Source: Desulfatiglandales bacterium (GTDB lineage: Bacteria > Desulfobacterota > DSM-4660 > Desulfatiglandales > Desulfatiglandaceae). From it: DNA of 64,000 nucleotides. The DNA lies in NCBI GenBank assembly GCA_963662465.1, contig OY759599.1:1536001-1600000 (forward strand), read 5' to 3'. The notes under the pieces are model-generated. The model was not told where the DNA came from and ran no database searches. It was given only the letters and a program-made list of their open reading frames with translations. Of this stretch, positions 34,884 to 49,481 are shown piece after piece. Every line of letters starts with the position of its first letter. Position 1 is the stretch's first letter. The translations under genes were made by a program, and so were the position numbers.

Positions 34884-35288
34884 GATCCAGTCGATGAACA
34901 GAAACGGGATACCTCGATACCTAAATGAAAACCTGCCAGATCGGTTTTGCGGCCATGGCTGTCCTTGGCGATAACTTGCAGTGTATGGGAACCGGATGGA
35001 ATATTTGACAATGGAATCTCAAGATCAAAACCCAAAATATCGTAAGGCTCAAAAAAGCTGTGTTATCATCAAATCAGAGGGCTATAACGAACGTTGAGAT
35101 TTATTCTATTTTTCAATTTTATCATTATTGCAATAGATTGAGAGTATTCCCAAAAAAATCAGCACCGTGAAAACCTGGTGATTCGAATTATTTATGCCCA
35201 CATACTCACATCCTGTCCAGCATCCTCTTGGCTCCCGGGAAGGCCCTTTAAAGCAACCGACCAAATAATGAACTACATTAAGCGGCTC

Positions 35289-39840: not shown

Positions 39841-40155
39841 CTAAACAGCCCGGCCTTCTTTGATAGCTTCCAAGGCATCTTTGTAGTGTGCCCTGACATT
39901 TTGAACGAGATCCAGGAGCTCTTCTGATCCCTCTGATTGTCGGAGAATGTTTTCGATGACCACAATCAGGGGTTCCATTAATTTCAGATTCCTGACCGTT
40001 TCCCAGCTCATGGCCTCATCAATATGGAATAACACCCTGTCGGACCCTTTGAATCCGAATTCCTCGACAACCTGCCCCCTCAATACTATCCATGCCCCCT
40101 GCAAATCAGAAATAGCAGTTTTGGTGTATCCTGTTTCTTCTTCAATAAATGCCAT
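39841..40155 (-). CDS. Hypothetical protein (104 aa)
   Basis: ATG at 40155 with AAAGGAA upstream; first gene downstream (minus strand) of the non-coding array. Confidence 0.65.
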   Translation of the reverse strand: MAFIEEETGYTKTAISDLQGAWIVLRGQVVEEFGFKGSDRVLFHIDEAMSWETVRNLKLMEPLIVVIENILRQSEGSEELLDLVQNVRAHYKDALEAIKEGRAV

Positions 40156-40191: not shown

Positions 40192-42000
40192 CCTTGATAT
40201 GCATCCCTGTCAGCGACCTCTTTCCTCCCAGGACCGGCGCACGGCGCAACCTCCTTCGCCAAATAGAACCACAGCCAGCCGAGCGCCTACATCGTAGCTG
40301 TTTTAATCAGTGGGGCTATGGGCGTTTCATTGGGATTGGCTCAAGGGTGGGCGCAAAGAACCGCGCTCACCCTTGAGCCAATCCCAATGGCTGGTATTCC
40401 ATAGGTAGTTTAGTTGCAGGGCGCAAGGTCGGGGACCAGATTTAATCACACACCTTTGCAGCAACCCTCTTCGACCAACCTCTCAACATCGATGTGCCTC
40501 AACCCTGGTAAGCAGACCATCGGAAGGGTTTTTGGCATGCACCATGCGATTTATCTTCCCGGGAGTAGCGTATGGGCCACGCCAAAAACCTGCCAACCTT
40601 AATTCACAACCCTTTGCCCTTTGCAGCAACCTCCATAATTCCACCTCAAACTTTGGTTGCTGCCTCGAACTTCTACGACATCGGTTGGCTGTTTTCGGCA
40701 CCCTTCCCCCCTCTCCTTCCATCCCCTCCGTGCATTTGTTTAACCGCAATCCAGTTGGTATGCTGACAAATGCACGGTACAAGGAAGGGGCTAAGCATGC
40801 GGCGCCGTTCCGGCTTGCAGCCCCATCTTTTTTTTTAAAGGGGGGGAAGGGGAAAACCGCCAGTCTCGCCAACTCAATTTAATGCCCTTTGGGAAATTCC
40901 GTCCGGAGGCTGGCAACTCGCCGGAGGCGTATCAGAAGAAACAGCACAATCCAATGGCACTATGGCCCGGCACATCATCCGGCCAGGCACTTCCAAACAG
41001 CCGCAAGTGCCCCGGCCTGCTTCAGCGCCAGGCCACAGCGCCCCCAAGTTTCACCCTGGTACTTTTCCTATCAAAGCCTATCAAGCCCATAACCTTGGTA
41101 AGCAGGGCATCAGACCGCCCGGTGGCGGGCATATTAAACAAAAACATACATCGGATCGGCCCGGTGGCCGTCTTAATTTAAAAGAGCATACATCAGGCCG
41201 CCCGGAGGCGGTCACTGTTTTGATTACATATCTTCGCAGCAACCTCTTTCCTCTCATCCACCAGCATCGGAATCCCTTAACCTTGGGGCCAAACGTCGCG
41301 CCAAAACAAGAGCGTGATATTTCTCCAACGTCCACAGTCAATGGCCCGTCCTCAATCACGCACTCGTTTTGGCGCGGCGAGGTGTGTTTTCTCTTCGCTC
41401 GCGGTAAGCTATTTCCTTAATTCAAAAGTCCTCGCATCACGCGGGCAAAGGCAAAACACCCCACTCGGTTTTGATCACATACCTTTGCAGCGATCTCTTT
41501 CCTTTTATGCACCAGCGCACGGCGGAACGTCCTATATTTATTTCAACCTCAACCAGCCGAGCGCTTCCTCTTACAGGGTCTTAACCTGTGGGGCTATGGT
41601 CATTCCATGGAAACGCGGGTGGGCGCAAGGAGCCGCGCTCACCCTTGAGCCAATTTCGAAGTTCAGTATTTCATGGGCAGTCCTCATCCTTAACAACCAG
41701 TCGCCTACCCTGCTTCTGTTACGGCCTCCGGCGGCCCGGTTCCGCGTTGTGCGCGGGTATGAGGAACTTTTCATCATTTTTCCCTATTGGCATGGTTTTG
41801 TGCAGTAAATGCCCGGCTGAAAAGAATGCCCGCATCGCAAAAACCATCGCCAATAGAAAAAAAGGAGAAACGCTATTCAATAACACCCCTTTGCAGCAAC
41901 CTCTTTTTTCTCTTTATTATCCCTCACCCACATTCCAAGTGACCATCGAACCCTGGTTATCCGGATGTGTCTGCGGACAACAAACATACCAGGACCTTGC
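40192..42000. repeat. Non-coding array of ~30-bp degenerate direct repeats separated by hairpin-rich segments
   Basis: Six copies of consensus TTTRATCACAYACCTTTGCAGCAACCTCTTT at ~40192, 40441, 40600-40633, 41218, 41469 and 41875; many long inverted repeats in between; no credible ORF. Confidence 0.75.
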
Positions 42001-42089
42001 AATTATCCGTATTCTTTTGTCCCTCTGGTACTGGTTATGCGAGGACGTTTCAACTCAACTTTGAAGTTCGATACCAACACAACCGATCA

Positions 42090-42479
42090 CTAACCCAAAA
42101 CTGCCGACAGTACCTTGAATGCCAGCTTCAGTTGTTCGGTATCCGCTTGATCCAGGAGAGACATTATTATGGACTTCCTTTCCACTGGATCTTCGATTTG
42201 AATAAAGCCGAAGATTTCACCCAGACCCACTTCCAATGATTCCGAGAGCTTTATCAAGGTATTAAGGGTCGGATTTTCATTTCCCCTCTCAATGCTGCTA
42301 AGATATTTCGGGTTGATTTCCATTTTTTCAGACAATTGCTCCTGGGTGAGTCCTTTCTTGTTTCTGACCTCCTTTATTCGTGCCCCGATCATCTGTTTTT
42401 TATCCACGGCCTTTAACCCCCCGTCATTTTTGATTTTTCTAATTGTGACAGAGAGCAAGCCAGTTAAAAACAGTCCCAC
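42090..42479 (-). CDS. XRE-family HTH transcriptional regulator
   Basis: 'IGARIKEVRNKKGLTQEQLSE...YLSSIERGNENPTLNTL'; true start probably further downstream, near VDKKQM. Confidence 0.9.
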   Translation of the reverse strand: MGLFLTGLLSVTIRKIKNDGGLKAVDKKQMIGARIKEVRNKKGLTQEQLSEKMEINPKYLSSIERGNENPTLNTLIKLSESLEVGLGEIFGFIQIEDPVERKSIIMSLLDQADTEQLKLAFKVLSAVLG

Positions 42480-45809: not shown

Positions 45810-46306
45810 GTGTCCTTTCTGCAAGCCTGCATAGGGCAAATTTTTTCATTTTTTTTTGGGTGGCCGGAAGACGCTAGGTGGCGAGCTCCGTTATCCGGCG
45901 TCTTCTGTCGATCTGATTATCTGTGAGTTACTAAGACTGGGAATTTAGATTTTGCCTGTAATTCCAGGGAAGCCAGTTTTCGGGGTTTACCTTTACCAGC
46001 TCGGGATTTTTGTGAATGGTCAGGAGATATTCGTACGGATTTTCTCCGTTCATGGCACAGGTCTGAATAAGGCTCATAAAGATGTCTCCAATGAGGGCGC
46101 CATGCTCTGTTTTGTAAAACAGGGAGTTTTTTCTGTGAAGAATGGCCTTTTTCAAAGCCCTTTCGCAGATGTAATGCCGACTCCCGGATTATGCCGCATT
46201 ACAAGAATTTTGTGGGATTATTCGTGCCTTGAAGTAGTTGCTGACGCGGCATAATTTTTGTGGGATCTTCGGTTTGGCAATCCCGCCAAACGAAAGGAGA
46301 GACCAC

Positions 46307-47551
46307 ATGAAAACATTCAGTAATTTCGTATCGAAAAACAACCCGCATTCGAACCTATGTCAAACCCATGTCAACTCCTTCCTATCACACCTTCGCACTC
46401 TGGGGTATGCAGAACGGACGCTACGGAAAAAGCGTCCAGTTGCTGCCTCTTTTGCCCGATGGACAGTGGGGAAGCGGCTTACTGTAAACGATCTAAACGA
46501 ATCCCATCTGACCGAATTCGTGGAGCGTTTGCACAAAAGGCAAAAAGCCCGGATAAAATTCGAAATGGCTGCCCTGCGGCTTTTTCTCAGCTATCTGCGC
46601 CAAGAAGGTGTGGTTCCAAATCCTCCAATACTTGATGCTTCACCCGTGGATGATTTTAAGCGGACCTACATAGAATACCTGCGAAAGGAGCGAGGACTCG
46701 CCGAAAACTCAATTCTTGTTTATTCGCCTTTCATCAGTGATTTTCTCAATGATCGGTTAGCCCAAACCGGTTGCATCTCTTTCCATGCATTGGATGCCCT
46801 GACAATCCAAAATTTCCTCCTCGATCGCATTCAAAACCGGTCGAGAGAATACTCGAGGCTTCTGGCCGCCGCCCTCCGATCATTCTTGCGGTTTCTTTAC
46901 CTTCGCAAAGAAATAACAATTGATTTTTCCCTATCGATTCCCAGAGTCCGTAAATGGCATCAGTCCGAGGTAATTGGCTTTCTAACCCCCGACCAGGTAG
47001 AAAGGATCCTTTCGTCAACCGATCTGTCGACGCCACGTGGAAGACGCGATTATGCCATTTTGCTTCTTCTTGCACGACTCGGTCTGCGTGCGGGAGAGAT
47101 AATCACGATAGAACTCGGTGACATCCTCTGGCGGATCGGGGAGATCGTTATTCGCGGCAAGGGCCAAGTACAGGACCGACTACCATTGGTCTCAGATGTC
47201 GGAGATGCTTTAGCGGTTTATCTACGTCAAGACAGAGGAGATAGCGTATCGCGACGGGTTTTTCTGCGAATGATTGCTCCACGCGTTGGCTTGGCCGGCC
47301 CAGGGGCGATTGGCCATATTGTACGCCTTGCATTTGCCCGAGCCGGCATATGTGCTCCGAGCCGTGGCGCAGCCCATCTCTTCCGCCACGGTCTGGCCAC
47401 CAGAATGATCCGCCAGGGTGCCTCCATCGCTGAGATCTCTGAGGTTCTCCGTCATCAATCCCAGAGTTCCACAGCCATTTACGCGAAGGTCGATTTCGAG
47501 ACACTCCGTGAGATTGCTCCGCCTTGGCCGGGTCAAGGAGGTGTGCGATGA
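46307..47551 (+). CDS. RIT tyrosine recombinase A
   Basis: RDYAILLLLARLGLRAGE, RGKG, HLFRH, LRH, TAIY; RBS AAGGAG. Confidence 0.93.
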   Translation: MKTFSNFVSKNNPHSNLCQTHVNSFLSHLRTLGYAERTLRKKRPVAASFARWTVGKRLTVNDLNESHLTEFVERLHKRQKARIKFEMAALRLFLSYLRQEGVVPNPPILDASPVDDFKRTYIEYLRKERGLAENSILVYSPFISDFLNDRLAQTGCISFHALDALTIQNFLLDRIQNRSREYSRLLAAALRSFLRFLYLRKEITIDFSLSIPRVRKWHQSEVIGFLTPDQVERILSSTDLSTPRGRRDYAILLLLARLGLRAGEIITIELGDILWRIGEIVIRGKGQVQDRLPLVSDVGDALAVYLRQDRGDSVSRRVFLRMIAPRVGLAGPGAIGHIVRLAFARAGICAPSRGAAHLFRHGLATRMIRQGASIAEISEVLRHQSQSSTAIYAKVDFETLREIAPPWPGQGGVR

Positions 47552-48489
47552 CTGCAATCCGTGACGCACTTGCACGGTATTTAACAGTCCGCCGTGCCCT
47601 CGGTACTCGTCTACAAGAGCCAGCCACGACACTTGGCTATTTTGTAGATTTCCTTGACCTTCAGGGAGCAAAATTCATCACCACTGATCTCGCCCTTCGT
47701 TGGGCGTGCCAGCCAAAGCATGTGCAAAGAGCGACATGGGCACGCCGGCTTACTATGGTCAGGCAGTTTGGTGCTTGGCTGAGTGCATTCGACCCGCGAA
47801 CGGAAGTACCGCCAAAACGGCTCCTCAATGCCCGTCATCGGCGCAGTAAGCCCTACATCTATACCGAACAGGAAATAGAACATCTCATGATCGAGGCCGC
47901 TTTGCTCCCGTCACCGATGGGATTGCGCGCATTAACCTATGTGACGCTCATAGGTCTTCTTGCCGTTACGGGTATTCGGCCAGGTGAAGTGGTAGCTTTG
48001 AATCTGTCTGATGTGGATCTAAAGAACGGTATTCTTGTAATTCGGCAGACGAAATTTGGAAAGTCCCGTTTTGTTCCGATTGACGATTCGACATGTTCCG
48101 CCCTTTTGGATTATGCAAATCGACGCAATAACTTTTACACACGTTTTCAGACCAACAGTTTTTTTGTCTCCGAACGAGGCACAAGACTAAGTCTTGGATC
48201 CGCCCGACGTACATTCGCCAAAGTATCATGTGCTGTCGGTCTTCGAACTGCAAAAGATGGCTGCCGAATCGGTCGCGGACCAAGGCTTCAGGATTTTAGG
48301 CATACGTTTGCAACAAGAAGAATTATCAAATGGTATCAGGCCGGATTGGACGTGAACAGAGAGTTGCCAAAGCTCACTTCCTATCTCGGCCACTCAAACG
48401 TCAGTCATACTTATTGGTATATTGAGGCGGTCCCGGAGCTCCTCCAGCTCGCTTCCGAGCACATGGGCCGGCAAGGAGGTGCACAATGA
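47548..48489 (+). CDS. RIT tyrosine recombinase B
   Basis: TGIRPGE, TKFGKSR, QDFRHTFA, YLGH, TYWY; 4-nt overlap with A. Confidence 0.93.
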   Translation: MTAIRDALARYLTVRRALGTRLQEPATTLGYFVDFLDLQGAKFITTDLALRWACQPKHVQRATWARRLTMVRQFGAWLSAFDPRTEVPPKRLLNARHRRSKPYIYTEQEIEHLMIEAALLPSPMGLRALTYVTLIGLLAVTGIRPGEVVALNLSDVDLKNGILVIRQTKFGKSRFVPIDDSTCSALLDYANRRNNFYTRFQTNSFFVSERGTRLSLGSARRTFAKVSCAVGLRTAKDGCRIGRGPRLQDFRHTFATRRIIKWYQAGLDVNRELPKLTSYLGHSNVSHTYWYIEAVPELLQLASEHMGRQGGAQ

Positions 48490-49481
48490 AAGCCTCCAGC
48501 TTTTCATCACTTCTCCAGCGTTTCTTTACGGACAGATTGCTCGCACAGCTTGGCGCCAGTCCGCACACTGTTGCCGCATACCGGGATACCTTCCGTCTGT
48601 TGCTTCGCTTCGCCGCGAAACACTTCGGGCGTTCGCCTTCTGAACTGCGCATAGAAGAGCTCGATGTTTCTTTCCTGTGCAAGTTTATTCAACACCTTGA
48701 ACTTGATCGCTGTAATTGCATCCGGACACGGAATAACCGCCTTTCCGCCCTGCAAGGTTTCTTTCGGTATGTGTCCTTCAGTGAACCCGCACTGTCATTG
48801 CACTGTCAGAGGGTTCTGGCGATCCCTGCCAAACGGTACGAGCGCCGTCCGGTTGAGTTCCTGTCGGATGAAGAAACTGCCGCTCTTGTTGCAGTTCCCG
48901 ATTCAAAAAAATGGATCGGCAGGCGTGACCGAGCGCTCCTGTTGCTCGCCTTACAGACAGGATTGCGAAATAGCGAAATCACATCGCTTCAGTGCAAGGA
49001 TGTGGAACTCGGCACCGGTGCTCACGTCCGTTGCCTCGGAAAGGGTCGAAAGATGCGATGTACCCCTTTGCGCCCTGATGTCGTCGCAGTGCTGAAGAAA
49101 TGGTTAAAGGAGCAAGATGGCCATCCACAAGATCCTCTCTTCCCAAGCTCACGCGGTTTACGTCTCAGTGCAGATGCTCTCCAGCGACTCGTTGCCAAAC
49201 ATGCAGCCATGGCGAGTCATACATGTCCATCCCTAAAAGGGAAAACAGTTACACCCCACACCTTGCGGCATTCGGCGGCCATGAGCCTGCTCCGACGTGG
49301 TGTTGATCTGACCGTGATTGCTCTCTGGCTCGGGCACGAATCAAATGAGACAACACAAATCTACTTGCATGCTGATATGGGAATTAAGGAGCAAGCCCTT
49401 GCCCATACCACTGCAAGTGGTTCCATACCTGATCGGTATCTTCCTGAAGACCCTTTGCTAACATTCCTTGAGAGCCTTTGA
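48486..49481 (+). CDS. RIT tyrosine recombinase C
   Basis: TGLRNSE, GKGRK, TPHTLRHS, WLGHE, TQIY; 4-nt overlap with B. Confidence 0.93.
   Translation: MKASSFSSLLQRFFTDRLLAQLGASPHTVAAYRDTFRLLLRFAAKHFGRSPSELRIEELDVSFLCKFIQHLELDRCNCIRTRNNRLSALQGFFRYVSFSEPALSLHCQRVLAIPAKRYERRPVEFLSDEETAALVAVPDSKKWIGRRDRALLLLALQTGLRNSEITSLQCKDVELGTGAHVRCLGKGRKMRCTPLRPDVVAVLKKWLKEQDGHPQDPLFPSSRGLRLSADALQRLVAKHAAMASHTCPSLKGKTVTPHTLRHSAAMSLLRRGVDLTVIALWLGHESNETTQIYLHADMGIKEQALAHTTASGSIPDRYLPEDPLLTFLESL

Follow-up and report, generated by a model that had tools for sequence, protein, structure and literature searches.

Exploring a 64,000-nucleotide stretch of DNA from a Desulfatiglandales bacterium (the window), we found a gene-free modular array of conserved repeats and long imperfect hairpins that is real and apparently undescribed, and that probably represents a cis-region orphaned from a satellite-like island (Table 1). 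One of its hairpins belongs to a family, found also in two related arrays of the host chromosome and in viral contigs, whose arms resemble the -24/-12 element of σ54 promoters.

Table 1. The array and its parts (positions are those of the window)
Positions	Strand	Feature	Remark
40192..42089	none	Whole gene-free modular array	Matches the L002 and L001 arrays
40192..40223	+	Repeat copy 1	Degenerate
40237..40286	none	Module A core	Invariant 9-bp inverted repeat, 31-32-nt spacer
40328..40389	none	27-bp stem	26 Watson-Crick pairs and 1 G.T on +; not σ54-type
40441..40471	+	Repeat copy 2	
40501..40521	+	AACCYTGG, then CATCRG motif	Directly ahead of the σ54-type stem
40526..40591	none	σ54-type hairpin	+ arm 11/13 consensus positions at 40532; - arm 10/13 at 40585
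40600..40633	+	Repeat copy 3	Duplicated internally; lies 6 nt past the σ54-type stem
40712..40790	none	Long stem	Not σ54-type; diverged yet still paired in L002
41110..41213	none	Three short GC-rich hairpins	~42-nt period, CATCRG ahead of each
41218..41249	+	Repeat copy 4	
41294..41379		25-bp stem	Outward-pointing σ54-like site (11/13) begins at 41304, minus strand
41381..41460	none	Long stem	Not σ54-type
41469..41654	+	Repeat copy 5 and second module A	Stem of module A shortened
41784..41856	none	Stem whose σ54-type blocks are separated by one base too many (TGGC-N8-TTGC)	Bulged base
41875..41905	+	Repeat copy 6	Sole copy with intact TAAC at the attC R'' position
42090..42479	-	XRE (HTH_3) gene	Accompanies the array 3' end in L001 and G055; no counterpart next to the L002 array

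The earlier note on this DNA had described a non-coding array of repeats and hairpins, and both the repeat and the stems indeed exceeded shuffled controls. None of the four ORFs tested inside the array matched Pfam, six-frame tblastn of the array against the host gave no match beyond the paralogous arrays, and no coding relic was found in it. No cas gene was found in 30-64 kb, and no integron integrase near the window. With an irregular repeat spacing of 165-778 nt, stems between the repeats and no cas gene in that region, the array is not of the CRISPR type. Scans of the array for σ70 promoters (one σ70-like site versus 3.3 expected) and for terminators stayed at chance level. The six repeat copies reported before were recovered: four copies of the 21-nt repeat core (40448, 41226, 41477 and 41883) carry no more than 3 mismatches, versus 0.00 in 100 shuffles, and two further copies, at ~40192 and ~40600-40633, are degenerate. 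The motif AACCYTGG stands 48, 48 and 61 nt past the repeat core, as claimed, and a fourth AACCYTGG at 41091 is not preceded by a repeat. That the segments between repeats mostly differ in sequence is true except for module A, as 40192-40382 recurs at 41469-41654 with 74% identity. Module A has six copies in the genome, including the two in the window and a solo one, whose core (C1:592431-592479; L066 9430-9520) lies ~300 bp past a gene resembling a diversity-generating-retroelement target.

Between 40190 and 42050 we counted four stems in which 16 or more of 20 pairs are Watson-Crick, versus a mean of 0.02 in 60 shuffles, and none of 400 random host windows held four such stems. Six of the seven long stems listed in the earlier note, which were hand-picked, fold at z -3.5 to -11.9 (RNA, + strand); the exception is 41952-41993, which at z of only -1.2 is not significant (folded as 41948-41996). 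G.T wobbles had been said to point to different strands in different stems; both strands are indeed seen, but minus is favoured 30 to 14 (23 stems of the three arrays, orthologous pairs included), and the same stems hold 59 non-wobble mismatches. Between the window and the paralogous arrays, orthologous stems show compensatory changes, to which the differences between the stem at 40526-40591 and its L002 ortholog belong. Given these changes, folded single strands, as suggested earlier, probably matter.

The two relatives of the array, L001 and L002, lie at ~163 kb and ~7.729 Mb of the host chromosome C1. The L002 array matches window positions 40505-41655 with 83% identity over 1179 bp and carries five extra long stems upstream of the matching part; the L001 array matches 41470-42089 with 98.5% identity over 620 bp and is without 40935-41470, a 534-bp loss. 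Because the module lost from L001 lay between two repeat copies, the 30-bp repeat serves as a joint where modules come and go, through either homologous or site-specific recombination. Read joints in three public DNA runs of one study were accounted for by the paralogous arrays. The cassette-like reading of the earlier note stood in part: the array is modular, structured, non-coding and reshuffled, as seen from the L001 loss and from the mosaic chromosomal copies. Cassette ORFs between the modules were not found, and the attC version of that reading failed (see below).

Examining the surroundings of the arrays, we found the gene order integrase, two DUF3987 genes, array and cargo at L002, in a 23.9-kb stretch flanked by a 61-bp direct repeat whose sequence resembles the 3' part of a tRNA gene. 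At L001 the order is integrase, Toprim primase, small-terminase-like gene, array, XRE and cargo, and no bounding att repeat was found. Both islands carry an SNF2/PLD-type helicase region and toxin-antitoxin-like genes. As in PICI and P4-like satellites and iOriT islands, there is an integrase, a primase or DUF3987 replicase and defence cargo, together with the small-terminase-like gene in L001 and an att repeat in L002 only; unlike in these, a 2-3-kb hairpin array sits between the replication genes and the cargo. The window copy has no integrase, primase or replicase beside it; what surrounds it is limited to accessory genes, IS elements and a trio of recombinase genes, and the gene beyond the XRE is interrupted by an IS. 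As no core genes lie near the window copy, which has evidently lost them, we read it as an orphan; the array very probably originated in a satellite-like island. A search of the host gave no match to the large-terminase family PF03354, the one family searched, and none to Zot; in view of the former, we name no helper phage.

The neighbouring XRE gene is likely cargo. Its control of the array, considered earlier, found no support, as the L002 array is without such an XRE and the window gene is oriented towards the array, which leaves its upstream region at the end away from the array. At the other end of the array, a gene for a 104-aa protein (39841-40155, minus strand) adjoins it, with 954 homologues and no Pfam family. 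The recombinase trio consists of three tyrosine recombinase genes in a row (46238-49481; RIT-like), near-identically scoring copies of which occur at three other genome sites. An imperfect ~130-bp direct repeat, at window 35026-35160 and at C1:1608059-1608190, 37 kb apart, possibly marks the bounds of an island around the window array.

Outside the host chromosome, genome G055 holds the array 3' end and the XRE gene at a contig end. At 2 mismatches the 21-nt repeat core occurred in 12 of 209 genomes of the class, in more than one copy only in the host, and the module A pattern in one of the 209. A sequence model gave matches in 2 of 105 class genomes, the second at E 0.0066 without BLAST support. 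Searching with the L002 array at E 0.01 returned 13 of 209 class genomes, of which only genome G001 appears related, by a 32-nt motif; the motif of the short hairpins at 41110-41213 lies at a contig end of this genome. An exact scan for the repeat core gave 0 stretches in 2.9 million viral contigs, and 8 genome-contig and 29 metagenome-contig stretches, all single and with no second module. Beyond G055 and G001, the repeat was not found in the 209 class genomes or the three contig collections. Two of the exact core matches that were checked (L037, L051) fell inside coding sequence, the matches of the module A and short-hairpin patterns in viral contigs (7 and 6) were attributed to chance, as was the single 29-nt match in a phage collection, and no viral locus related to the 197-aa protein of L002 was found.

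Aligning the arms of 23 stems, we found a family whose minus-strand 5' arm reads TGGCG-N6-TTGC, followed by a loop and a 3' arm GCAA-N6-TGHCA (also TGMCA). Continuous pairing ends at the -12 GC, and the six spacer bases vary between family stems yet stay paired. Eight window stems were scored for the motif: one is a clear member (40526-40591, whose minus arm has lost TTGC), one has +1 spacing, one carries an outward-pointing site and five are without the motif. A search pattern derived from the host stems found, in its loose form, at least 120 stretches in IMG/VR; among the matches listed, 8 of 104 distinct sites paired at 5-6 of the 6 spacer bases where 0.5 were expected, versus 1 of 107 distinct sites at 6 or more of 8, with 0.45 expected, in a +2-spacing control. 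The strict pattern gave 37 stretches versus 2 for +1 spacing; of its 33 distinct sites, 22 had at least 4 of the 6 spacer bases paired, and pairing was also seen in one of the two control matches (6/7). Across the 24 outside hairpins among the matches listed, four of the six spacer columns show four Watson-Crick pair types, and 11 of the 24 seem to be one kin group. Any widespread hairpin repeat would yield a spacing-specific excess, which counts against the σ54 reading.

Among 100 other genomes of the phylum the family occurred in three: in an attC site (G271), twice in REP-like palindromes (G247) and in G302. In the two G247 loci (L411, L413) the family hairpin forms the tip of the palindrome, which suggests that it travels as a module. 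The island layout recurs in part in three IMG/VR proviruses. G307 and G309 combine an integrase and DUF3987 with restriction cargo and a gene-poor stretch, which holds three family hairpins in G307 and one in G309; G308 has 2 family hairpins, restriction cargo and a P22-type coat gene. With the window array the outside arrays share only the hairpin, the alignments not clearly exceeding shuffles (best score 39 versus 30.4±3.6). Rfam found nothing but a tRNA in 14 family-bearing loci outside the host. Nor is the window array itself a known repeat by this measure: no Rfam family was reached at gathering score, and with three arrays and one solo module in the whole host it is unlike a MITE or REP, the kind of match that the earlier note had named as telling against a new system. 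The G307 record, a 28-kb provirus (L391; L418:7200-9900), shows a 2.5-kb gene-poor mosaic of duplicated hairpin modules, similar in build to the window array but different in sequence. In a 417-kb viral contig, tandem ~72-bp palindromic repeats (L166:3001-3408) hold four loose-pattern matches.

TGGC-N7-TTGC is the σ54 -24/-12 form, and the host has rpoN. Both arms of the family hairpins fit the σ54 consensus, including positions left free in the search. Among the matches listed, G at spacer position 2 was found in 20 of 24 paired versus 23 of 91 unpaired sites (10 of 13 paired hairpins when the kin group is left out), A/T following TTGC on the opposite strand in 20 of 24 versus 43 of 91, and a pyrimidine at spacer position 1 in 18 of 24 versus 51 of 91, sites pairing at 3-4 being left out of these comparisons. 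In the window, GG at -24 together with GC at -12 was found at 40532 on the plus strand, and most other stems lack it; five L001 and L002 stems match 11-12 of 13 consensus positions on the better arm. As far as the available part of PMC3844500 goes, Salmonella sites bound by σ54 share the form, beginning TGGCACG, TGGCATG or, once, TGTCACG. In a nifH scaffold of the σ54 closed complex, described in an excerpt of PMC5505868, a mismatch right after TTGC mimics the -12/-11 fork junction, and the family stems open where this scaffold is mismatched, just past TTGC. Family hairpins are thus like σ54 promoters in the TGGCRYG-N4-TTGC form, the fixed spacing and the duplex ending at the -12 GC, as far as the same two partial sources (PMC3844500, PMC5505868) describe them, and unlike them in carrying the motif on both arms of an inverted repeat, in their paired spacers, in being arrayed and in having no downstream operon and no recognised activator site.

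A model built from the 24 outside hairpins ranked array stems 1-4, 8-11 and 13 in the 8.16-Mb genome (the window stem 40526-40591 at 10) and long host attC stems 5-7, a ranking that is partly circular because the search pattern was drawn from host stems. Rank 12 went to C1:76829-76874, where two σ54-like sites stand head to head 8 nt apart, outside the arrays and weakly paired. Genome-wide there is no excess of TGGC-N7-TTGC (444 versus 245-505 for other spacings). The family also occurs in attC and in the REP-like elements of G247, where a role for σ54 is not obvious. Weighing these comparisons of sequence, we lean slightly towards σ54 being the reader of the family motif.

The compensatory changes and the minus-strand bias of the wobbles would also be expected if the array were transcribed, mainly from the minus strand, with the σ54-like sites of linear DNA as possible promoters, and then cut into structured small RNAs; that minus arms retain GG at -24 better than plus arms fits this as well. 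We nevertheless regard this reading as quite improbable, as Rfam gave only generic hairpin matches far below the gathering score, 59 non-wobble mismatches lie within the stems and the fixed 11-bp spacing of the blocks would suit a reader of DNA grooves better than RNA.

The proposal of attC-like cassettes did not survive its own test, although parts of the array resemble attC pieces. These pieces could be relics: the repeat would be a decayed attC left end (R''-spacer-L''), AACCYTGG-TAAGC a piece of L' and the stems attC terminal stems, scrambled into islands, and the likeness to σ54 sites would be a side effect of the attC stem family. The host codes for five integron integrases above the cut-off, and its short attC sites have TTTGCAGC in the L'' box and stems with similar tips; the right half of the repeat matches this L'' box in register, weakly (1-5 bits). 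Scored with a profile made from the left ends of 13 host attC sites, six of the 11 repeat-type sites fell in the top 0.05-0.3% of genome positions, in register, and the ranks of the long host attC stems under the hairpin model point the same way. However, no intact attC frame was present in the window, L001, L002 or the solo copy on either strand (cores AAC, GAT, AAT and GAC), for which reason an attC with altered core (GAT/ATC) was rejected too, and the only two attC-frame matches are the perfect 27-bp palindrome. Aligned with 18 host attC sites, the arrays scored no better than shuffles; at the best of 23 offsets the repeat reached those 1-5 bits versus 15-30 for attC; 20 of 22 outside hairpins lie outside any attC frame, the other two being an inner stem within one; and the integron integrases of the host are not near the window. 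We therefore consider attC relics unlikely. Like integron attC sites and CALINs, the array has a hairpin that forms the terminal stem of some attC sites and a repeat resembling R''-L''; unlike them, it has no paired L''/L' or R''/R' boxes and no cassette genes between modules.

Returning to the three arrays, we found the AT-rich half of the repeat within 30 nt after 12 of 23 stems versus 10% of array windows, with a pattern that was fitted afterwards. Such a hairpin closely trailed by a conserved AT-rich motif could belong to a key ring of oriT mimics or Frpo/ssi-type single-strand origins, by which the islands would hitch on conjugative elements with one hairpin and core per helper. Islands carrying only an oriT are common and some plasmids have several oriTs, according to excerpts of bioRxiv 10.64898/2026.01.13.699239 and PMC11389934, respectively. 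By eye, the published Frpo sequences of PMC11541004 supplement 7 show a stem closing TTGC/GCAA and a CCCTGG motif, and a Replic_Relax (PF13814) gene lies at C1:148786-149421, ~6 kb from the L001 integrase. On the other side, 72,556 plasmids held no match beyond one 37-nt chance match; MOBP relaxases were found in 2 and Replic_Relax in 8 of the 209 class genomes, a class whose helpers are poorly sampled, and their loci and the IncC oriT region are dissimilar to the array; comparison with F leading-region spacers reached a best z of 2.9 in 18 comparisons; the hairpins have no downstream genes, unlike Frpo; and the L001 terminase-like gene and the G308 coat gene point to phage packaging. The host itself has no MOBP or TrwC relaxase, its MOBH relaxase match was an HD-type protein as judged by its ORF, and MOBH was found in 0 of 209 class genomes, a count of no weight since the control was silent as well. 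A conjugative role of this kind is accordingly rather unlikely in our view. As far as the part of PMC11541004 at hand describes them, Frpo and ssi elements are folded single-stranded DNA promoters of σ70 type in conjugative leading regions (F, ColIb-P9). The array shares with them long imperfect stems on mobile DNA, several per element, that make a promoter-like duplex when folded; it differs in its σ54-type -24/-12 blocks, which point into a closed loop, in place of σ70 -35/-10 elements, in its place in satellite-like islands, in the lack of downstream genes and in the absence of significant sequence similarity. With its chance-level count of σ70-like sites and the z of 2.9 against F spacers, we do not assign it to Frpo/ssi.

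The L001 array starts just upstream of the small-terminase-like gene and holds an iteron-like run (L001:7150-7330), with 6-7 copies of a 10-nt motif at a ~22-nt period whose core is common to the repeat. The arrays might hence be packaging or replication signals of satellites, i.e. pac or cos mimics or iterons, with the hairpins as by-products. This is very unlikely, given that the repeat core is absent from 2.9 million viral contigs, neither the window array nor that of L002 has the iteron-like run, and no similarity to the array was seen at the loci in G003 and G008 that hold small-terminase relatives. In G003 (L091; G003:C23) the small-terminase-like gene adjoins a short tyrosine-recombinase-like gene (218 aa). 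Likenesses to the SXT oriT, c4 RNA, lambda cos, the DnaA box and IHF sites are conceivable at most.

Coming back to σ54 as the reader, the array may be the cis-region of a satellite, with hairpins that serve to dock or trap σ54 polymerase, a chain of steps that we put forward tentatively, as its chance falls short of even. Upon excision and replication, or in a single-stranded state as during transfer, the inverted repeats would extrude. Folded in this way, a stem would present the -24/-12 element as a duplex with its end at the -12 GC, where the σ54 closed complex has its fork junction, and this duplex would point into a closed loop of 5-33 nt without downstream DNA. The holoenzyme would thus bind the folded stem but make no long transcript, and because the site points into a closed loop, several copies could work together as a σ54 sink or switch that damps transcription of the host or of a helper phage. 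In linear DNA the hairpin sequence would instead amount to a pair of σ54 promoters facing head to head. As the AT-rich half of the repeat follows the stems, on the minus strand it sits upstream of the -24 box, where it may serve as a site for an accessory protein.

In its widest form the proposal is doubtful: satellite-like islands in several lineages would carry hairpin arrays in which the fork junction of the σ54 closed complex is rebuilt on both strands, and with them, needing no protein, would soak up or switch σ54 polymerase: the first folded-DNA promoter mimic of σ54 type and a mobile module also riding in attC and REP elements. The literature searched, in which subscription journals were thinly covered, yielded no description of hairpins of σ54 type in either satellites or attC. 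Should the σ54 reading prove wrong, the analysis has still defined a hairpin family that is short, searchable and absent from Rfam, and that links non-coding regions of satellites, some attC stems and REP-like elements. If it is true, a folded promoter of σ54 type or a DNA decoy for the sigma factor on satellites would be a new, protein-free interference with transcription in the host or a helper. The effect of a σ54 decoy could be large, as sulfate reducers depend strongly on this sigma factor.
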